Under the pieces are notes generated by a model. It was given only the letters and a program-made list of their open reading frames with translations. It was not told the DNA's origin and ran no database searches. Below are positions 5,343-23,236 of a stretch of DNA of 64,000 nt, piece by piece (within the stretch, counting starts at the first letter, position 1; the number at the start of each line of letters is the position of its first letter). Source of the DNA: an uncultured delta proteobacterium (GTDB lineage Bacteria > Myxococcota_A > Polyangia > Haliangiales > Haliangiaceae); assembly GCA_963772655.1 (NCBI GenBank), contig CAVYYE010000009.1, positions 150,343 to 214,342 of the forward strand, in the 5' to 3' direction. The position numbers and the translations under genes were made by a program.

Positions 5343-6668
5343 ATGACCGTCTGCAACAGATGCGGGAAAGAAAACCAGGACCACTACAAGTTCTGCCTGG
5401 GATGCGGAGCCGAGCTATCGGCCGCACCGAAGCCGCCAGCGGGCGACATGGGCATGATGAAGACCATGATGGCGGACAACTCCCAGGGCTTCGGTCCGGG
5501 TGGTCCGGGTGGTCCTCCGGGACCGGGACCGGGACCGGGTCCGGGTGGACCGGGTCCGGGTCCGGGTCCGGGTCCGGTTGGTCCGGGTCCGATGGGACCG
5601 CCCCCGGGAATGCCCGGGATGCCGCCACCAGGACAGCAGCAGCGGGGGCCGTCCAACGCGATGCCGCAGCAGGGACCGCGTTCGGGTCCGATGGGCATGC
5701 CGCCCTCGGGACCGATCGGTGCGCCTCCGATGACACCTCCCCCGATGGGCCCGCCTCCCGGCGTGCCGGGATTCAATCCGGGCTTCGGACCACCCCCCGG
5801 TGGACCGAGTCCGTCGACCGGTCCGCGTCGCTGTCCGTCGTGCGGTAGCGACGTCCCGCCGACGTTCCGGTTCTGCGGCACGTGCGGCTTCCGCATGGAC
5901 GAGGGCTCGGCCCCGATGCAGATGCCGCAAGGCCCCGGCGGCGGACCCCCGATGGGTGGCCCCGGCCCGCAGATGGGTGGTCCGCAGATGGGTGGTCCGC
6001 AGATGGGTGGTCCGCAGATGGGTGGCCCGCAGCCCGCCCCCGCGCGACTGTCGATGACGCTGATCCGCCCGGACGGCACCGAGGGTGGCACCCACGAGCT
6101 GCGGCCCGGCGAGAACAAGATCGGTCGTAGCTTCGGTCCGATCTTCGAGAACGACGGTTACCTGTCGCCGGTCCACGCGGTGCTGATGATCCACGGCCCC
6201 AGCCAGGGCATGGTGAAGGACCTCGACAGCCTCAACGGCGTGTTCGTGAAGATGACGCAGGAGGAGGAGCTGACCTCCGGCCAGATCATCCGCATCGGAC
6301 AGGAGCTGCTGCGGTTCGAGCTCATCGCGTCGCCGGAGGCCACCCCCGACGGCACCGAGCTCATGGGCAGCCCCAACCCCGGCTACTGGGGCAAGCTGAC
6401 CGTGATCATCGGCCGCGACATCACCGGTGCGGCGTTCCCGCTCCTCGGCGACAACGTCACGCTCGGTCGCGAGCGCGGGGAGATCAACTTCCCCGACGAC
6501 GGTTATGTCTCGGGACTCCACGCGCGCGTCACGCTGCGTGACGGCCGGGTCTACCTCTCCGACCTCGGCAGCTCGAACGGCACGTTCATCAAGGTCAACG
6601 GAGAGCGCGGCGTCGGTAACGAGTCGTTCGTCCTCCTCGGCCAGCAGCTGTTCCGGCTCAACATCTAG
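5343..6668 (+). CDS. Zinc-ribbon / P-G-rich low-complexity / double-FHA protein (paralog of the upstream gene)
   Basis: CNRCG...CLGCG and CPSCG...CGTCG zinc ribbons. Long Pro/Gly-rich linker with (GPQMG)n and GPGPG repeats. Two FHA modules (KIGRSFGPIFENDGYLSPVHAVL...; TLGRERGEINFPDDGYVSGLHARV...SSNGTFI). SD-like GAGGGA upstream of the ATG. Confidence 0.85.
   Translation: MTVCNRCGKENQDHYKFCLGCGAELSAAPKPPAGDMGMMKTMMADNSQGFGPGGPGGPPGPGPGPGPGGPGPGPGPGPVGPGPMGPPPGMPGMPPPGQQQRGPSNAMPQQGPRSGPMGMPPSGPIGAPPMTPPPMGPPPGVPGFNPGFGPPPGGPSPSTGPRRCPSCGSDVPPTFRFCGTCGFRMDEGSAPMQMPQGPGGGPPMGGPGPQMGGPQMGGPQMGGPQMGGPQPAPARLSMTLIRPDGTEGGTHELRPGENKIGRSFGPIFENDGYLSPVHAVLMIHGPSQGMVKDLDSLNGVFVKMTQEEELTSGQIIRIGQELLRFELIASPEATPDGTELMGSPNPGYWGKLTVIIGRDITGAAFPLLGDNVTLGRERGEINFPDDGYVSGLHARVTLRDGRVYLSDLGSSNGTFIKVNGERGVGNESFVLLGQQLFRLNI
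5968..6033 (+). repeat. In-frame 15-bp tandem repeat (CCGCAGATGGGTGGT x about 4.4) encoding (PQMGG)n; upstream GGTCCG-type hexamer repeats at about 5492-5595
   Basis: Direct reading of the sequence: near-perfect head-to-tail copies inside the coding region of the second FHA gene. Confidence 0.9.
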
Positions 6669-6704
6669 CCGGGGTTCGGCGCACGGCGCCCGCGAAACCG
6701 GGCG

Positions 6705-7148
6705 CTATTTCTTTTTCTTGTGGGCGCCGCCGACGCCCTCGAGGTCGTCGACGGAGTATCCGGCGTCGTCCTTGCGGACGAACTTGAACGCCTTCTTGAT
6801 CGTCAGCTGACCGCCGGGATCGAAGATCACGAGCACGTCGACCACTTCGTCGGGCTTGCCACCCGGCGCCTGGACGATCAGCTCGGAGTCGCTCTGGAAC
6901 CGGATGATCGAACCCTGGCGAGATCCGAAGTAGACCTTGGCGTTGCGAGGACCGTCCTTGATGAACCGGTTCCCCTTGATCACCACGTAGGTCCCACCCT
7001 CGGTATCGCCGGTATCGGGCGATAGATCCGTCACCTTCAACTTGGGATCGTCATCGCCGCACGCCACTGCACCCAACGCGAGAGCCAGCAGCAACACGGG
7101 CCAGACGGCCCGTAACCACGGGGCATGCTGACGTCTCACGGCAGTCAT
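6705..7148 (-). CDS. Hypothetical small lipoprotein (147 aa)
   Basis: ATG at 7148 gives MTAVRRQHAPWLRAVWPVLLLALALGAVACG (signal peptide plus lipobox-like AVAC). C-terminal KKKK. The longer ORF extension upstream is low-complexity junk. Confidence 0.5.
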   Translation of the reverse strand: MTAVRRQHAPWLRAVWPVLLLALALGAVACGDDDPKLKVTDLSPDTGDTEGGTYVVIKGNRFIKDGPRNAKVYFGSRQGSIIRFQSDSELIVQAPGGKPDEVVDVLVIFDPGGQLTIKKAFKFVRKDDAGYSVDDLEGVGGAHKKKK

Positions 7149-7195
7149 GTACCGAAACCTACCCAAATACGGGCGCCGGCGCCAATCGCCGGCGA

Positions 7196-8572
7196 TTACA
7201 ACAGGTCCCGGCGTGCCAGAGCCCGGCGCATCTTGGCGAGCGCCTGCTCCTGGAGCTGGCGGATGCGCTCGCGGGACAGGTTGTACTTGTCGCCGATCTC
7301 CTTGAGCGTGAGCTCCTGCTCGGTCCCCAGCCCGAATCGCTGGCGCAGGATATCGGCCTCGATGGGGCGCAGCTCGCGGAGCAGGTCGCGGACCTCCGTG
7401 GTCAACGCTTCCCACTCGAGATCGTCGGTCGGGGACGTCGGATCGCGATCCGGGTCCTCGAGCACCTCACCCAGCACCCGGCCCTCGTCGTCGCCGACCG
7501 GCTTGTCGATCGACACCGAGCTCTCGAGCAGCCAGCTCCGCATTTTCTCGATCTTGTCGAGGGGCATCTGCGTCGCCTCTGCGAGCTCTTCGCTCGTGGG
7601 TTGACGACCCAGCTTCCCGGTGAGCTGACGGCGCGCCTTGGTGAGCCGGTGCTGGGCATCGATCATGTGCACCGGCAGCCGGACCTCGCGTCCCTTGTCG
7701 GCGAGTGCGCGGCTGATCGCGTGGCGGATCCACCAGCTCGCGTAGGTCGAGAACCGGAAGCCTCGGCGATAGTCGTAACGCTCGACCGCCTTGATCAGAC
7801 CGAGGTTGCCCTCCTGGATCAGATCGGCGAGTGCCATGCGACCGTGGTTGAAGCGGCGCGCGATGCTGACCACGAGCCGGAGGTTGGCCTTCACGAAGTC
7901 GTTGCGTGCCTCGGCGGCGGATCGGTTCGCGGTGTACACGCGACGAAGCCACTCGCTCCGTGCGCGTTCGCGCCCGAGCGACCCGACGGAGACGCCGCGC
8001 GATCCGATACCCAGCGAGATCCGATCGACGGTCATGAGCGCGGCGTCGATGAACAGGTGATCGACATCGGCGGAGCGAAGCTTGCGAGCCGTCTTCGCGA
8101 CCTGCTTGCTCCACGTCTTCTCGTTGGGCTTCTTGTCCTCCGCGGCACGCCGCAGCGTCTTGGCCTCGGTCGGGAGCGTCTCGATCAACTCCTCGACGGT
8201 CGCGATCACGTGCGCGACCGCCGGCGGATGCGAGAGCACCGCTTCCCACAACATGATCTCCAGCAGCTCGATCTCGCGCGCCGAGGTGAACTCCTCCTCG
8301 GGACGCAGCACGTCGAGCACCGCCATGTCGCGGAAGTACATCGACAGGTAGGTGCCGCTGTCGGGACGGGCGGGTTTCTCGTCTTTGTCCTGCCCTTCCG
8401 ATTCGGTGCGGACGTCGTCGTCGTCATCGTCGTCGTCCGGATCCTCCTGACGGGCGCGGGTACGCTTCGCCGCCTTGGCGGATACGCGAGCCGCGCGCTG
8501 CCGCGCTTCGGTCTTCTTCTGGTCTTTCTGCGGTCGACCAAAGCCTCCGAACTTCGTGACGATGGCTGCCAT
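7196..8572 (-). CDS. RNA polymerase sigma-70 family factor (RpoD-like, group 1/2), 458 aa
   Basis: Region 2 (DLIQEGNLGLIKAVERYDYRRGFRFSTYASWWIRHAISRALAD), region 3, and region 4 (LTLKEIGDKYNLSRERIRQLQEQALAKMR). N-terminal K/R-rich then poly-Asp segment. Confidence 0.9.
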   Translation of the reverse strand: MAAIVTKFGGFGRPQKDQKKTEARQRAARVSAKAAKRTRARQEDPDDDDDDDDVRTESEGQDKDEKPARPDSGTYLSMYFRDMAVLDVLRPEEEFTSAREIELLEIMLWEAVLSHPPAVAHVIATVEELIETLPTEAKTLRRAAEDKKPNEKTWSKQVAKTARKLRSADVDHLFIDAALMTVDRISLGIGSRGVSVGSLGRERARSEWLRRVYTANRSAAEARNDFVKANLRLVVSIARRFNHGRMALADLIQEGNLGLIKAVERYDYRRGFRFSTYASWWIRHAISRALADKGREVRLPVHMIDAQHRLTKARRQLTGKLGRQPTSEELAEATQMPLDKIEKMRSWLLESSVSIDKPVGDDEGRVLGEVLEDPDRDPTSPTDDLEWEALTTEVRDLLRELRPIEADILRQRFGLGTEQELTLKEIGDKYNLSRERIRQLQEQALAKMRRALARRDLL

Positions 8573-16994: not shown

Positions 16995-17465
16995 TCACGC
17001 TGGCTCGGACAGGTCCAGGACCATCACGAGCGCGTCCTCGGCGTTGTCCTGGTAGTAGCCCGTGCGCACGCGCACCGTCGCGAACCCGGCGCGTTCGTAG
17101 AGGGCGATCGCCGGCGCGTTGCCGCGGCGCACCTCGAGCGTGGCGAGCGTGCAGCCCTCGGCACGCGCGTCGCCGAGCACCCGCGCGAGGAGCCGCCCCC
17201 CGATGCCGGCGCGGCGACGATCCGGGTGCGCGGCGACCGAGTGCACGTGGAGCTCGCCCGCGACCACCCACGCGACCAGAAACGCGATCGCCAGGCCGCG
17301 CGGATCGCGCGCGACCCACACGCGGGCGTGGTCGCGCTCGAGCTCGGCCGACAGCGCGGCGCGCGTCCACGGGCGAGGGAACGAGTGGCGCTCGATGTCC
17401 TCGATCGCGTCGAGGTCGGCGACGGTCGCGCGAGAGATCTCGGCGATCGCATCGTGGGCGCTCAC
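16995..17465 (-). CDS. rimI: GNAT N-acetyltransferase, RimI-like (ribosomal protein alanine acetyltransferase)
   Basis: 156 aa with GNAT motifs (VARDPRGLAIAFLVAWVVAGELHVHSVAAHPDRRRAGIGGRLL...). Lies 4 nt downstream of engB. Confidence 0.75.
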   Translation of the reverse strand: MSAHDAIAEISRATVADLDAIEDIERHSFPRPWTRAALSAELERDHARVWVARDPRGLAIAFLVAWVVAGELHVHSVAAHPDRRRAGIGGRLLARVLGDARAEGCTLATLEVRRGNAPAIALYERAGFATVRVRTGYYQDNAEDALVMVLDLSEPA

Positions 17466-17468
17466 GAC

Positions 17469-18116
17469 TTAGCCAGTACCCTTGGGGTGCGCCAGCGAGC
17501 TGCCAGGCGAGCCAGTACCCTTGGGGTGCGACGCCACCAGCCCGACGACCTGCTTCCACAGCGTCTCCATCGCGCCCGGGATCGGATCGAGCGTCGACAC
17601 CGCGACCGGATCGCGTGCGAGCGACAGCTGCGATCGCACCTCCTTCACGATCGGGACGCGCTTGTTCTTGGCGAGCTTGTCGGCCTTGGTCAACGCGACG
17701 ACCACCGGGCGCTGGCGCTCCCCCAACCACGGCACGAAGTCGAGCTCCTCTTCCTTGACCCCGCGGCGGATGTCGACGAGCAGCAGCACACCGGCGAGCG
17801 TGCCGCGCTGGTCGAGGTAGCTCTCGATCAGCGGGCGCCAGCTGTCGCGCATCTGGGGCGACACCTGTGCGTAGCCGTAGCCCGGCAGGTCGACGAGGTG
17901 GAACTTGGTCTTGCCGTCGATCGCGAACCAGTTGAGCAGCCGCGTGCGACCGGGCGTGCGCGAGGTGCGCGCGAGGCCGTCGTGACCGACCAGCGTGTTG
18001 ATGAGGCTCGACTTGCCGACGTTGGACCGCCCGACGACCGCGACCTCGGGAAGGTCCTCGGGTGGGAACTCGCTCGGCTTGCTCGCCGAGATCACGAAGC
18101 GGGCGGGGACTTTCAT
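17469..18116 (-). CDS. engB: Ribosome biogenesis GTP-binding protein EngB/YsxC (YihA)
   Basis: G1 VAVVGRSNVGKSSLIN, GRTRLLNWF, G3 DLPGYGYA, TKADK. ATGA overlap with the upstream cytochrome gene. Confidence 0.9.
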   Translation of the reverse strand: MKVPARFVISASKPSEFPPEDLPEVAVVGRSNVGKSSLINTLVGHDGLARTSRTPGRTRLLNWFAIDGKTKFHLVDLPGYGYAQVSPQMRDSWRPLIESYLDQRGTLAGVLLLVDIRRGVKEEELDFVPWLGERQRPVVVALTKADKLAKNKRVPIVKEVRSQLSLARDPVAVSTLDPIPGAMETLWKQVVGLVASHPKGTGSPGSSLAHPKGTG

Positions 18117-18604
18117 GGCGTCTTGTTCACCGGGTGTACGGGGGCGGTGGGGTCGAACAGGCTAGCCCGGGTTCGGCGCGATGCCACGTGGCAACGCGCG
18201 CACACCGCGGCGCGGAGCTTCGGCGTCGACAGGTCGACCAGCCCGAGCGCGCGGGACACCGGCGGGTCGCGCATGATGTCGTCCTCGGCGTAGTCGGCTC
18301 CCGAGCCGTGGCAAGCCTCGCATCCGACCTCGACGGCGATCGCCACGCCGGCCGGCGCCTCGCCGGTGCCGTGACACGCCAGGCACTTCGCTGGTGGTGG
18401 GGTGGTGGTCCAGCGACGCGCCGTCGTGGCGTGCGGTGTGGTCTTCCACGCGGCGAGCTCCGCGGGATGGCACCTGCCGCAGCGCGCGCTTCCGACCCAG
18501 TCGCGGCGCGAACCATCGGCGCGCCGCCCACCGATCAGGCCGAGCACGAGCGCGATCGCCGCGAGCGAGAAGACCGAGCGCATCCGGGGTGTTCTCCGTC
18601 CCAA
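18113..18604 (-). CDS. Small periplasmic tetraheme c-type cytochrome
   Basis: Signal peptide plus four CxxCH motifs (CGRCH, CLACH, CEACH, CARCH) in 163 aa. Confidence 0.75.
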   Translation of the reverse strand: MGRRTPRMRSVFSLAAIALVLGLIGGRRADGSRRDWVGSARCGRCHPAELAAWKTTPHATTARRWTTTPPPAKCLACHGTGEAPAGVAIAVEVGCEACHGSGADYAEDDIMRDPPVSRALGLVDLSTPKLRAAVCARCHVASRRTRASLFDPTAPVHPVNKTP

Positions 18605-18653: not shown

Positions 18654-20426
18654 GTGGCACACGTGATCGGCCTGACCGGCGGTATCGCCTCGGGCAAGAG
18701 CACCGTGGCGCGGATGCTCGCCACCCGCGGTGCCGCGATCGTCGATGCCGACAAGCTCGCGCGCGAGGTCGTGGAGCCCGGTCAGCCGGCGCTCGCCGAG
18801 CTGGTGGCCCGGTTCGGCGCCGCGATCCTGACGCCCGACGGCACGCTCGATCGCAAGCGACTCGGCGCGATCGCGTTCTCGGATCCGGACGCACGGCGCG
18901 ACCTCAACCGGATCACGCACCCGCGGATCGCGGCGGCGAGCGCCACGGCGATCGCGACCCATGCAGACGCCGGCGCCAACGTGGTGTTCTACGAGGCCGC
19001 GCTGCTGGTCGAGAACCGCAGCCACGAGGCGATGGAGGCGCTGGTCGTCGTGGCCGCGTCGCCCGAGACCCAGATCGCGCGGATCGCCGACCGCGACGGG
19101 CTATCGCGCGAGGAAGCCGAGCAACGGATCGCCTCGCAGCTCCCGCTGTCCGACAAGGTCGATGTCGCGACCTGGGTGATCCACAACGACGGCGACCAGA
19201 CCGCGCTCGCCGCCGAGGTCGATCGCGTGGTCGCCGAGATCGAGCAGCAGTTCGGACCGATCCGGATACCGCGCCCGGCGCCGACCAAGCACCCGGCCCG
19301 CGCGAGCGGCGACGTCGCGCTGATCACCGGGTTCCCCGCGTTCACCGCCCGGCGAATGATCGCGAAGCTGCTCGCGAGCGAACCCGACACCCGGTTCTAC
19401 GTGCTCGCGCAGCCGCGGTTTGCCGACGCCGCCGACGAGCTGTTGCGCGGCCTCGAGGCCGGCGATCGCGCGGAGACGCTGGTCGGCGACATCTGCGACA
19501 TGGACCTCGGCCTGTCGAGCCGCGAGTACCGCGCGTTGTCGAAGGAGCTGACCTGGATCCATCACCTCGCCGGCATCTACTTCATGGGCATCGACGACGA
19601 CACCGCGCGGCAGGTCAACGTCGTCGGTACGCGCACGGTCCTCGATCTGGCGCGCGACACCGGCCGTCTCGAGCGAGTCGTCCACTGGTCGACCGCGATG
19701 GTGTCGGGTGATCGCCGAGGCACGTTCTACGAGGAGGACCTCGAGGCCGGCCAGAAGTTTCACAACGGCTACGAGCGCACCAAGTACGAGGCCGAACGGC
19801 TGGTCCGCACCGCGATGCGACAGCTACCGATCACCATACTGCGTCCGGGGATCATCGTCGGCGACAGCACCACCGGCGAGATCGACAAGCTCGACGGCCC
19901 CTACTACCTGATGGTGCTGATCGCGACCAATGCCTCGCGCCTGCGCTTGCCGCTGCTCGGCCGCGGCGACGTGCCGCTCCACCTGGTGCCGATCGACTAC
20001 GTGATCGATGCGGCATGGAAGATCGGCCGGCACGAGGCCGCCGCCGGCAAGACGTTCCACATCGTCGATCCCCAGCCGATGACCGCACGAGAGGTCTTCG
20101 AGCTGGTCGCCGAACACGCGCACACCGAGAAGCCCCGCGGGCACATCCCGCGGCCGCTCGCCCGCGCCGTGCTCAGGACACCGGGACTCGCCCGTCTCGG
20201 CCGTGGCCCGCTGGCGTTCGTCGACGTGCTCGATCACGTCGTTCATTACGACCAGACCAACACCGCGACCGTGCTCGCCGGCTCGCGGATCCGGTGCCCG
20301 TCGCTCGCCGACTACCTGCCGAACCTGGTGCGCTACGTCGTCGACGTCACGCGGCCGGTCGACAAGCGGGAAACCGCGCCGCGCGGCCCGTCGTCTCCCG
20401 ACGACGATCTCGATCCGCTGGCGTAG
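18654..20426 (+). CDS. coaE: Fusion protein: dephospho-CoA kinase (CoaE) N-terminal domain plus NAD(P)-binding extended SDR / epimerase-reductase-like C-terminal domain
   Basis: GTG start gives MAHVIGLTGGIASGKSTVARML (P-loop; CoaE family through about aa 200). It continues in the same frame with VALITGFPAFTARRMIAKLL (Rossmann GxxGxxG), ...YERTKYEAERLV (YxxxK), and VPIDYV. The upstream part of the listed ORF overlaps the cytochrome gene and is not coding. Confidence 0.8.
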   Translation: MAHVIGLTGGIASGKSTVARMLATRGAAIVDADKLAREVVEPGQPALAELVARFGAAILTPDGTLDRKRLGAIAFSDPDARRDLNRITHPRIAAASATAIATHADAGANVVFYEAALLVENRSHEAMEALVVVAASPETQIARIADRDGLSREEAEQRIASQLPLSDKVDVATWVIHNDGDQTALAAEVDRVVAEIEQQFGPIRIPRPAPTKHPARASGDVALITGFPAFTARRMIAKLLASEPDTRFYVLAQPRFADAADELLRGLEAGDRAETLVGDICDMDLGLSSREYRALSKELTWIHHLAGIYFMGIDDDTARQVNVVGTRTVLDLARDTGRLERVVHWSTAMVSGDRRGTFYEEDLEAGQKFHNGYERTKYEAERLVRTAMRQLPITILRPGIIVGDSTTGEIDKLDGPYYLMVLIATNASRLRLPLLGRGDVPLHLVPIDYVIDAAWKIGRHEAAAGKTFHIVDPQPMTAREVFELVAEHAHTEKPRGHIPRPLARAVLRTPGLARLGRGPLAFVDVLDHVVHYDQTNTATVLAGSRIRCPSLADYLPNLVRYVVDVTRPVDKRETAPRGPSSPDDDLDPLA

Positions 20427-20440
20427 CGCCGCCTAAGCGC

Positions 20441-21637
<1,197 letters not shown>

Positions 21638-21649
21638 AGGCCGAGGGTT

Positions 21650-23236
21650 CTAGCGCAGGATGCCGCGCAGGAACAGCTGGCACAGGTAGCGATAGGCCTC
21701 GATCTTCGGCATCCCGGACACGTCGAGGAGCTCGTCGAGGGTCAGCGTGCCGTCGACCCGCGACAGCAAGAACGCGGCGCGCGGGCTGATCGGTGCGTTC
21801 GCCAGCTCGTGCAGCGGACGCGCGAGTACCGGCTGGCGATCGAGGCTGCCGAGGAACGCCTGGAACACCGTCATCATGGTTTCGCGGTTGCGGTGGATCA
21901 GCTTCTGGCCGAGCGCGCTGTTGGGATCCTCGGCCATCGCGAGATCGATCGCCGCGACCGCGCGATCGAGCTCGCCGGCCTTGCCCCACTCCGCCGCCCG
22001 CTCGAACAGCGTCGTGATGCGGCGCCGGGTGCGATCCTCCAACTCCTCGTGGTCGGGGGCGCCCTCGTCGACGTCGTCGAGAATCTGCGCGCTGCGTACG
22101 CCGATCGGATCGAACGGCAGGTAGACATCGGCGCGCGTGCCATCACCGATCTCGCCGGAAACGGTTTCGGGCTCGGAACCCGGTGGGCGCAGCCCGAGAT
22201 CGCGCGTCGGAGCGCCCACCATGTCGGCGTAGGGCGAGCGCGGATTCGGCAGATCGCGCGTCGGCACTTCGCGCGAGTGCTCTGGTTTCTCCTGACGCGC
22301 GTTGGTCTTCTGGGACTCGAAGTCCTGGGTCGGCGCCGTGCCGTGTGAGGGATCGTCGATGGTCGGCGAGTCGATCGGCGGCGGACCACCGTTAGACGCC
22401 GCCGGTGGACGTAGCGACGGCGGCAGGTCCGCGGTGGCCGAGCGCGCCGCCCTCGACGGCGTCGGCGTCGGTAGCGAGCTCAGCAGATCGACATCCGGCG
22501 CGGGAGGCTCGACGTCGAGTGACAGCCTCTCGCCACCCGGCGCTTCACTCGGTGGCGGCGTCGGCGTCGGCGGCTCGCTCGGTGCGTCGCCCTCGCCCGA
22601 GATCTGCGGTGATAGCTCGATGTCGCCGAACGGATTGTCGCTGTCGTTCGCGTTGGCCGCCTCGGCCGGCGTGCGCAACGTCATCGACAGCTCCGGAGGC
22701 GACTTCGACGGAGCCCCGGTCGCGCGCACGAACCCGGTATCGCGTTCGCGCAGGTTGGTCGGCAGACTTCCGAATCCGCCCGCAGGGTCGACGCCAGGTG
22801 TGATCTCGATCTCCGCGAACTCGCTCGCGACCGGCGCGTGTGCGTCCGAGACGTCCTCGAGATCGAGCTGGAGCGCCTGCGAAGCCGGCGGCGGCTCGCT
22901 GGGCGGCTCGTCCTCGAGATCCCATCCGGCATCCACCCCCGGGGGGGGTTGGAGCTGCGGATCCGTCGCGTCTCCGTTGTCGGATGGAATCAGAACCTCG
23001 ATCTGGTAAGGCTCTTCGTCGAGCGCGAACGGCGCGTGTGCCTCGTCGTTGGCGACGTCGCCGGTGAGCATGTCGTAGTTCTGGCGCACGTAGTCGACGT
23101 AGCTCGATGCCTGGGCGTTCTCCGGGTCGGCTGACAACGCCTCCTCCCATGCCTCCAACGCACCATCAAGATCTCCTTGTCCATACAGCGTCAGTCCGTG
23201 CTCGATGAGGCGATCGATTTCGCCAGGCGCCACCAT
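21650..23236 (-). CDS. TPR-like N-terminus / long disordered Pro-Ser-Asp-rich linker / conserved C-terminal domain shared with the downstream J-protein
   Basis: N-terminal GQGDLDGALEAWEEALSADPENAQ (TPR-like). C-terminal PRAAFLLSRVDGTLTLDELLDVSGMP resembles the N-terminus of the J-domain protein (EEYFVLSRIDGSQTLRQILLSTGLS). Stop lies 4 nt from the dnaK-like start. Confidence 0.7.
   Translation of the reverse strand: MVAPGEIDRLIEHGLTLYGQGDLDGALEAWEEALSADPENAQASSYVDYVRQNYDMLTGDVANDEAHAPFALDEEPYQIEVLIPSDNGDATDPQLQPPPGVDAGWDLEDEPPSEPPPASQALQLDLEDVSDAHAPVASEFAEIEITPGVDPAGGFGSLPTNLRERDTGFVRATGAPSKSPPELSMTLRTPAEAANANDSDNPFGDIELSPQISGEGDAPSEPPTPTPPPSEAPGGERLSLDVEPPAPDVDLLSSLPTPTPSRAARSATADLPPSLRPPAASNGGPPPIDSPTIDDPSHGTAPTQDFESQKTNARQEKPEHSREVPTRDLPNPRSPYADMVGAPTRDLGLRPPGSEPETVSGEIGDGTRADVYLPFDPIGVRSAQILDDVDEGAPDHEELEDRTRRRITTLFERAAEWGKAGELDRAVAAIDLAMAEDPNSALGQKLIHRNRETMMTVFQAFLGSLDRQPVLARPLHELANAPISPRAAFLLSRVDGTLTLDELLDVSGMPKIEAYRYLCQLFLRGILR

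Follow-up and report, generated by a model that had tools for sequence, protein, structure and literature searches.

Dephospho-CoA kinase (DPCK, CoaE) catalyzes the final step of CoA synthesis; the enzyme is essential and is usually viewed as a stand-alone housekeeping protein. Eukaryotic COASY is a known fusion of this enzyme. In M. tuberculosis, CoaE carries a non-catalytic C-terminal domain of the UPF0157 family, which affects CoaE folding or regulation (PMC2765170). Here we describe a gene in a 64,000-nucleotide stretch of DNA (hereafter the window) on contig CAVYYE010000009.1 of an uncultured delta proteobacterium, in which a CoaE domain is joined in frame to an extended short-chain dehydrogenase/reductase (SDR) domain resembling thioester and fatty-acyl reductases. 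The original prediction for this gene regarded CoaE as normally stand-alone, which is broadly true but not absolute, as the two fusions above illustrate.

The mycobacterial protein (PRK03333; PDB 6n39) resembles the window protein in being a bacterial CoaE with an extra C-terminal domain. The CoaE half aligns with positions 4-191 of 395 of PRK03333 and scores 186.7 bits, short of the cutoff of 215; 6n39 was also matched by Foldseek. The C-terminal domain of the mycobacterial enzyme, however, belongs to an unrelated fold and family. COASY, a fusion of phosphopantetheine adenylyltransferase with DPCK (PPAT-DPCK; PDB 2f6r), likewise joins DPCK to another enzyme, and its DPCK fold is matched by Foldseek. 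In contrast to the window protein, whose partner domain is a C-terminal reductase outside the canonical CoA pathway, the partner in COASY is N-terminal and is the preceding enzyme of the pathway.

The second half of the window protein is comparable to the reductase (R) domains of nonribosomal peptide synthetases (NRPS) and polyketide synthases (PKS), such as those of MxaA (4u7w/4w4t) and the S. coelicolor PKS (thioreductase, TR; 8v1x). Like them, it has a C-terminal substrate subdomain in an extended-SDR fold, a triad of Ser/Thr, Tyr, and Lys, and the motifs GD..LGLS, NVxGT, and RPGxxxGxSxTG. The differences are an identity of only 21-26%, a glycine motif that reads TGFPAFTA rather than TGATGFLG, a CoaE domain in the place of the preceding carrier protein, a score under the cutoff of the R domain model TIGR01746, and an acidic tail with DPL. 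The two-domain fatty acyl-CoA reductases of PRK07201, of which we take Marinobacter Maqu_2507 and M. tuberculosis AcrA1/Rv3391 to be members, match the whole reductase module including the C-terminal subdomain, and this family acts on free acyl-CoA, not on carrier-bound substrates. Unlike them, the window protein is without the second, classical-SDR half, scores under the cutoff of the model, and has CoaE as the N-terminal partner.

The locus as a whole has a counterpart in Anaeromyxobacter sp. K, where the same neighbours (engB and a cytochrome c gene) flank genes whose products are homologous to both halves of the window protein. The Anaeromyxobacter locus differs in that it consists of two genes, the SDR has a canonical glycine motif (TGYPGFIG), and a MaoC/hotdog gene pair follows. 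Both domains come from well-known families, and neither their fusion nor the gene pair is described in the literature searched; the searches on CoaE in myxobacteria or Kofleriaceae and on CoaE with a thioester reductase returned nothing relevant. An enzyme of primary metabolism is here tied to a thioester-reductase-like protein in lineages of two myxobacterial classes, a ‘Rosetta stone’ signal for an undescribed link between CoA synthesis and acyl-thioester reduction or acyl-CoA/NADPH sensing. The practical stakes are modest, as the families are known and the sequences are already public, those with names being mostly called ‘dephospho-CoA kinase’. Because Anaeromyxobacter is cultured, the connection is directly testable.

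Architecture and Conservation of the Fused Protein

The reading frame is open without interruption from 18402 to the stop codon at 20424-20426 of the forward strand in the list of open reading frames (ORFs), and translation from the GTG codon at 18654 gives a protein of 590 residues with the N-terminus VAHVIGLTGG.... This GTG is likely the start codon of the fused gene, since the homologues also start there (M-x-x-HVIGLTGG) and since the part of the ORF located 5' of it coincides in part with a conserved cytochrome c gene read from the reverse strand. The strings IGLTGGIASGKST, ITGFPAFTARRM, and YERTKYEAE are all found in the translation. The GC content of the window is ~70%, and many overlapping spurious long ORFs are listed; the open frame alone is therefore little proof of a gene.

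A search of 5.8 billion proteins gave 1323 hits. The best 120 clusters show identities of 73-83% and query coverages of 95-100%, contain both domains without exception, and have lengths of 566-727 residues, mostly ~580-600. Where public names are given, nearly all read ‘dephospho-CoA kinase’, and the sequences so named come from metagenome-assembled genomes of Kofleriaceae, Myxococcales, and Deltaproteobacteria. The fused protein is 83% identical to its best match, which marks the source organism as a new species-level relative. In a scan of one genome per species of the Genome Taxonomy Database (GTDB), the gene was detected in 32 genomes at the species level, each belonging to the Kofleriaceae/Haliangiales type. 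A single uninterrupted frame holds both the CoaE and the SDR match in 30 of the 32; of the other two, one locus ends at a contig edge and one (L032) is frameshifted. Sequence comparison on this scale confirms the fused gene as a real single gene rather than an assembly artefact. The frame had originally been read as running uninterrupted from CoaE into a second Rossmann domain, which agrees with the ORF and with both Pfam domains, and the proposed check of its conservation in relatives came out positive in more than 120 clusters and 30 species genomes.

Pfam CoaE (PF01121) matches residues 4-181 with an E-value of 2.1e-56 and 190.9 bits (cutoff 27) and covers profile positions 2-177 of 180, while the NCBIfam equivalog model for dephospho-CoA kinase, TIGR00152, scores 164.2 bits against a cutoff of 65.55. 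The P-loop GGIASGKST and the DxD motif D31-A32-D33 (DAD) are invariant in 34 aligned sequences. The AlphaFold2 (AF2) model of the full-length protein, computed with a 34-sequence alignment, has a mean predicted local distance difference test score (pLDDT) of 76 and a predicted TM-score (pTM) of 0.54; the CoaE domain reaches a pLDDT of ~90 and the SDR domain is moderately defined. Foldseek aligns the modelled CoaE domain with the DPCK structures 4i1u, 6ari, and 1n3b with target-normalised TM-scores of 0.8-0.86 and root-mean-square deviations of 2-3 Å. The profile scores, the P-loop and DxD motifs, and the predicted fold place the CoaE half in the DPCK family. No second CoaE was found by tblastn in the 64-kb window. 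The N-terminal domain is most likely the ordinary dephospho-CoA kinase of the organism.

In the SDR half, a Rossmann subdomain is followed by a C-terminal subdomain for the substrate. Pfam NAD_binding_4 (PF07993, ‘male sterility’) matches residues 224-453 with an E-value of 1.2e-41 and 143 bits (cutoff 20.1) over positions 1-257 of 258. The best NCBIfam match is the N-terminal acyl-reductase half of PRK07201, with 244 bits against a cutoff of 549, positions 4-366 of 657 being aligned with residues 223-578. Lesser matches include the thioester-reductase family, MxcG, OleD, Lys2, and carboxylic acid reductase (CAR), whereas TIGR01746 gives 117 bits, under its cutoff of 213.35. The best solved relative by sequence is 4u7w, the R domain at the end of the myxalamid synthetase MxaA (E-value 3e-25). 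Foldseek against the PDB also ranks MxaA R (4w4t/4u7w) and the Streptomyces PKS thioreductase 8v1x at the top, with ~380 aligned columns. The best curated matches being PRK07201, the thioester-reductase family, MxcG, OleD, and CAR, the chemistry to be expected is that of thioesters or acyl-CoA.

The alignment with MxaA displays the motifs GD-x(5)-LGLS, H-x-A-G, NVxGT, xSTA, YxxxK, and RPGxxxGxSxTG, which are invariant or nearly so in the clade; in the window protein, some of these read GDICDMDLGLS, HHLAG, and WSTA (residues 345-348). The catalytic residues S346/T347, Y373, and K377 (Ser/Thr-Tyr-Lys) are present. A C-terminal substrate subdomain, for which ~100 residues are expected, is seen in the PRK07201 alignment, which extends to residue 578, and in the Foldseek alignment with MxaA R. 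The confidence of its model is moderate only, with pLDDT values below 50 within residues 413-436 and 492-526. Pfam detects no PP-binding (carrier) domain in the fused protein, and the domain preceding the SDR is CoaE. The two halves thus correspond to what had been proposed for them: a complete CoaE domain with its P-loop (PF01121, TIGR00152, and the motif itself) and an extended SDR of the male-sterility or thioester-reductase type (NAD_binding_4, MxaA, and PRK07201).

The linker between the two domains is rich in Pro and Arg and is directly preceded by the clade-specific FGPIRIP, the end of the CoaE part. Throughout the clade the junction follows the pattern ...E-x-x-[FY]G-x-I-[RK]-[VI]-P..., after which come ~15-25 linker residues of variable length and sequence. 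Residues 208-217 of the window protein have a pLDDT below 50 in the AF2 model and are predicted to be disordered.

The Unfused Gene Pair and the Origin of the Fusion

A HMMER search of 1.84 billion cluster representatives yielded only a handful of fused representatives with less than 60% identity (P0123, P0124, P0125, P0139, and P0175, at 38-47%). Hundreds of stand-alone proteins of 350-400 residues match residues 220-565 at 36-48% identity; where named, they are called ‘thioester reductase-like protein’ or ‘SDR family oxidoreductase’ and come from Myxococcales and Polyangiaceae. Two of these, P0341 and P0316, are each encoded directly 3' of a separate coaE gene. In loci L051/L052, the coaE and SDR genes overlap by 4 bp, and a divergent EngB-type GTPase gene and a GNAT gene are found on their 5' side as in the window. 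A separate coaE-SDR pair in the same neighbourhood also occurs on one contig beyond L051/L052.

Metagenome contigs were scanned with a profile of the stand-alone members, and the loci were classed by tblastn and frame walking. The best 80 loci are by selection the closest to the query profile, and the counts apply to this subfamily rather than to every NAD_binding_4 protein. A separate coaE is directly upstream in 49 of them, with a gap between the matched coding regions of -4 to 170 nt (median 60); 21 are fused, 9 have too little upstream DNA to be classed, and 1 has no coaE upstream. Among the 71 metagenome loci with at least 700 nt of upstream DNA, coaE is fused or directly upstream in 70.

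A further profile search found Anaeromyxobacter to be the most distant coaE-linked clade. The gene order in the completely sequenced Anaeromyxobacter sp. K (CP001131.1) is engB(-), cytochrome c(-), hypothetical(+), coaE(+), SDR(+), MaoC(+), and hotdog FAS1_DH_region(+), and the SDR gene, annotated as ‘male sterility domain protein’, is located 8 bp downstream of coaE. Since the cytochrome c gene between engB and coaE is kept in nearly all loci, we infer from gene order that the coaE-SDR locus is orthologous across two Myxococcota classes. Genes for a MaoC dehydratase and a hotdog FAS1_DH_region protein follow the coaE-SDR pair in 13 Anaeromyxobacter-type loci (for example, L133 7250-8138, L091 5149-6029, and L075 5140-6023). 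This gene pair presumably encodes the two subunits of an (R)-hydroxyacyl-thioester dehydratase, a heterodimer of the HadAB or PhaJ type. The arrangement suggests a four-gene acyl-thioester operon in the Anaeromyxobacter clade. In the window and the Kofleriaceae loci, where it was also looked for, the MaoC/hotdog pair is absent.

The comparison of fused and unfused loci traces the fused protein back to this conserved coaE-SDR gene pair, and we regard the architecture and this origin as close to certain. The fusion arose by loss of the stop codon between the coaE and SDR genes of the conserved, often overlapping Myxococcota pair. All Kofleriaceae fusions form one clade in a tree of the SDR parts that was built by neighbour joining from 110 sequences, with BLOSUM62 distances and without support values. 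The fused L077 and L082 branch basally in the sister clade, whose other members are unfused, the fused P0124 is nested among unfused genes, and P0123, P0125, P0139, and P0175 make up a separate long-branch fused clade. L077 (1811-3547) and L082 (3350-5056) are continuous fused ORFs with linkers unrelated to that of Kofleriaceae. In their nearest relatives (L078, L074, L070, and L093), a stop codon closes coaE and the SDR gene starts from its own ATG, and the L077/L082 fusion is apparently independent of the Kofleriaceae one. The tree and the junctions together require at least three events of gain or loss, and the comparison suggests at least three separate fusions.

Repeated fusion of a conserved, co-directional, and close gene pair is a signature of functional coupling, and the two activities probably work together. 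The original prediction had suggested such coupling from the fusion itself. Some link is now backed by the conserved pair and the repeated fusion, but neither the channeling nor the moonlighting it envisaged is shown.

Catalytic Residues of the SDR Half

Of the 103 coaE-linked SDRs, 97 have both the catalytic Tyr and the catalytic Lys (50 of the 51 fused proteins and 47 of the 52 of the adjacent type). Ser/Thr, Tyr, and Lys are retained in nearly all coaE-linked SDRs and lost in unlinked paralogues. In the latter group (L050/P0130, L115/P0127, P0132, and P0144), both Tyr and Lys are replaced (e.g., V...L), and coaE is absent upstream in L050 and L115, the two paralogue loci that were examined. 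It is likely that the unlinked paralogues without Tyr and Lys are pseudo-enzymes that serve a separate function. Inside the Kofleriaceae clade, conservation is no lower in the SDR half than in the CoaE half (76.3% vs 73.5%), and 33 of 41 loci show the higher value for the SDR half.

The paralogue clade without Tyr and Lys, with sequences such as NAVEETL, includes L050 (6001-7128), L115, and L135 (8001-9116); the neighbours of L050 are genes for unknown proteins of 540-580 residues and GDSL-lipase genes. P0358 and P0334, which also have no Tyr/Lys, were set aside as evidence on the CoaE context because they are unlinked paralogues located elsewhere among unknown proteins (P0358 also among GDSL-lipase genes), and they served as a contrast group. 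The family as a whole spans a range from canonical enzyme through degenerate cofactor motif to apparent pseudo-enzyme.

The fused protein ends in an acidic tail of low pLDDT, in which D587, P588, and L589 are invariant in the 34 aligned sequences and the terminus reads D-P-L-[A/D/E]. The motif DP[LF] occurs inside the final 12 residues in 48 of the 51 fused proteins and in 30 of the 44 adjacent-type ones. Examples of such tails are DDDLDPLA, LEDEVFDPFD, and VDDPLD. The acidic DP[LF] tail ends most proteins in loci L001-L132 and is not confined to the fused and adjacent members of the Myxococcota SDR family, being present even in paralogues that are unlinked and catalytically dead. It resembles a short linear interaction motif or a peptide with an autoinhibitory role.

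Readings of the Coupling

The reading that we prefer, and to which we give about an even chance, is that the gene encodes a bifunctional polypeptide, in which CoaE is combined with an NAD(P)H-dependent reductase of pantetheine thioesters (acyl-CoA). Its chemical part is the more tentative one: the C-terminal domain may use NAD(P)H to reduce a thioester linked to pantetheine, for which acyl-CoA is the most plausible candidate. The SDR domain would convert acyl-CoA to the aldehyde or alcohol with release of CoA, and the fusion would hold the supply of CoA and an acyl-CoA-consuming reduction close together and at fixed stoichiometry. The MaoC/hotdog genes beside the Anaeromyxobacter SDR point in the same direction, that of acyl-thioester metabolism.

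Several observations weigh against this bifunctional reading. The canonical glycine motif for cofactor binding is T-G-x-x-G-x-x-G, as in TGATGFLG (PMC8024701). In the TGFPAFTA of the window protein, the second and third Gly are replaced by Ala, and the 34 aligned Kofleriaceae sequences all share this form; so constant a degeneration of the motif leaves NAD(P)H binding uncertain. In the fused proteins L028, P0123, P0125, and P0139, Tyr/Lys are gone and the P-loop of CoaE remains intact. These lineages have probably given up redox catalysis, and because they keep the SDR domain, the partnership seems not always to depend on it. We also find their glycine motif to be degenerate (L028 at 6001-7599). 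The AF2 model gives no confident interface between the domains, the linker being disordered; channeling is therefore without structural support, and with a pTM of 0.54 no inter-domain orientation is to be trusted. The divergent engB and cytochrome c genes are equally syntenic, and part of the gene order is perhaps merely inherited. Finally, published work on a CoaE-reductase fusion or a coaE-SDR pair was not found in a search that did not span all journals.

Some of these observations fit a different function, in which the SDR-like domain would serve chiefly in ligand sensing or regulation, binding NADP(H), CoA, or acyl-CoA and tuning, stabilising, or localising CoaE without turnover. NmrA/HSCARG-type SDR-like proteins are precedents for such sensors. 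We consider this appreciably less probable than the bifunctional enzyme, though a serious contender. A glycine motif that is degenerate yet invariant, the retention of the domain in the fused lineages without Tyr/Lys, the readiness of the family to yield pseudo-enzyme paralogues, and a disordered acidic tail whose terminal DP[LF] resembles a protein-interaction peptide are all in line with it, as is the folding or regulatory C-terminal domain on mycobacterial CoaE (PMC2765170). The distribution of the catalytic residues, which are kept in nearly all coaE-linked SDRs and lost in the unlinked ones, is however as expected under purifying selection on catalysis. The fully canonical TGYPGFIG of the Anaeromyxobacter-type orthologues and the link with a MaoC hydratase, which suggests a metabolic pathway, likewise argue for an enzyme.

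A neutral origin, in which coaE and the SDR gene are mere old neighbours joined by loss of a stop codon with no selective meaning, appears rather improbable. It would account for the unrelated engB, cytochrome c, and GNAT genes being likewise syntenic across the phylum and for a long, disordered linker with no predicted interface. It does not sit well with a pair that is co-directional, close or overlapping, that persists through divergence to about 40-50% identity, and that has apparently been fused at least three times. The fusion is moreover found in all sampled Kofleriaceae, with the SDR half constrained as strongly as CoaE.

A more speculative variant, which we regard as a long shot, is that CoaE grips the ADP ‘handle’ of acyl-(dephospho-)CoA and presents the pantetheine thioester to the SDR domain, in a carrier-free analogue of the peptidyl carrier protein-reductase (PCP-R) pair of NRPS, or that the altered Rossmann site (GxxAxxA) has given up NAD(P)H in favour of a CoA-type nucleotide. 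If CoaE did act as a carrier, or the Rossmann site did bind CoA, the locus would represent an unrecognised phylum-wide module that leads from the last step of CoA synthesis to thioester processing or to sensing of the CoA pool.

That the C-terminal domain is an enzyme of the NDP-sugar epimerase/dehydratase type, and no thioester reductase, is very improbable. Weak Pfam matches to Epimerase (E-value 1e-11), 3Beta_HSD (5e-10), RmlD_sub_bind, and GDP_Man_Dehyd, together with sugar epimerases and dehydratases further down the Foldseek list, are in its favour. NAD_binding_4 (1e-41) is nevertheless better by 30 orders of magnitude, the models for dTDP-glucose dehydratase, RmlD, and the like remain far under their cutoffs, thioester or acyl reductases hold all the leading places among the curated and structural matches, and the reductase-specific GD..LGLS and RPGxxxGxSxTG are present. 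This is the hidden Markov model (HMM) classification that had been proposed for the domain; on its scores the sugar-epimerase reading was rejected, and the NDP-sugar-type reduction offered as one option in the original prediction is disfavoured. A ketopantoate reductase, as a missing reductase of the CoA pathway, was likewise considered for the SDR domain and set aside, since its close matches are all reductases of pantetheine thioesters that have the corresponding C-terminal subdomain.

An indel that falsely joins two genes during sequencing or assembly has a negligible chance of being the explanation and was dropped: isolated frame breaks in relatives (L032, P0121) prove that such errors occur in metagenome-assembled genomes, but the identical in-frame junction FGPIR[IV]P recurs in more than 100 independent clusters and, across many samples, in 51 loci. 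The breaks inside Kofleriaceae-type copies, at 2189-3926 of L032 and in P0121, are probably metagenome-assembly errors rather than true gene splits. A genuine separation of the two domains by a stop or frameshift in independent assemblies, named at the outset as evidence that would speak against the fusion, was not encountered in the Kofleriaceae clade.

Feature Coordinates and Gene Neighbourhood

The features of the fused gene and its neighbours are summarized in Table 1. As argG is convergent to it, the fused gene is monocistronic in the window.

Table 1. Positions in the window of the fused gene, its parts, and the adjacent genes.
Feature	Residues	Position	Strand	Basis or remark
Whole fused gene		18654..20426	+	590 codons plus stop, likely GTG start; ORF list, translation, homologues
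Dephospho-CoA kinase (CoaE) domain	1-205	18654..19268	+	PF01121, TIGR00152, AF2, Foldseek
P-loop GGIASGKST	9-17	18678-18704	+	Within CoaE domain
Inter-domain linker	206-221	19269..19316	+	pLDDT, variable alignment columns, junction comparison
Thioester-reductase / fatty-acyl-reductase-like extended SDR domain	222-562	19317..20339	+	PF07993, PRK07201, 4u7w, Foldseek
Degenerate glycine motif TGFPAFTA	225-232	19326-19349	+	Within SDR domain
YERTK	373-377	19770-19784	+	Within SDR domain
Disordered acidic C-terminal tail	563-590	20340..20423	+	pLDDT <50, alignment
DPL of tail	587-589	20412-20420	+	Part of terminal D-P-L-A
Small multi-haem cytochrome c gene (four CxxCH; Cytochrome_C554/C7)		18113..18604	-	Pfam, tblastn, gene tables L133/L134
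EngB/YihA-type GTPase (MMR_HSR1), synteny marker		17469..18116	-	Pfam; also in L051/L052, L133, L134
GNAT acetyltransferase (RimI-like), synteny marker		16995..17465	-	Pfam; also in L051/L052, L134
Argininosuccinate synthase (argG)		20441..21637	-	Pfam; convergent to fused gene

The cytochrome c gene is situated between engB and coaE and is divergent from coaE, a position that is kept from Anaeromyxobacter to Kofleriaceae. Matches to it were obtained by tblastn 5' of coaE in nearly all loci, including 18179-18553 of the window; the gene is located at 4314-4838 in L133 and at 7430-7954 in L134. This synteny is unusually deep for an apparently unrelated gene. Just past argG, at 21650-23236 on the reverse strand, lies a gene for a protein of 528 residues with one N-terminal tetratricopeptide repeat (TPR) and a long, low-complexity middle part rich in Pro, Ser, and Asp.

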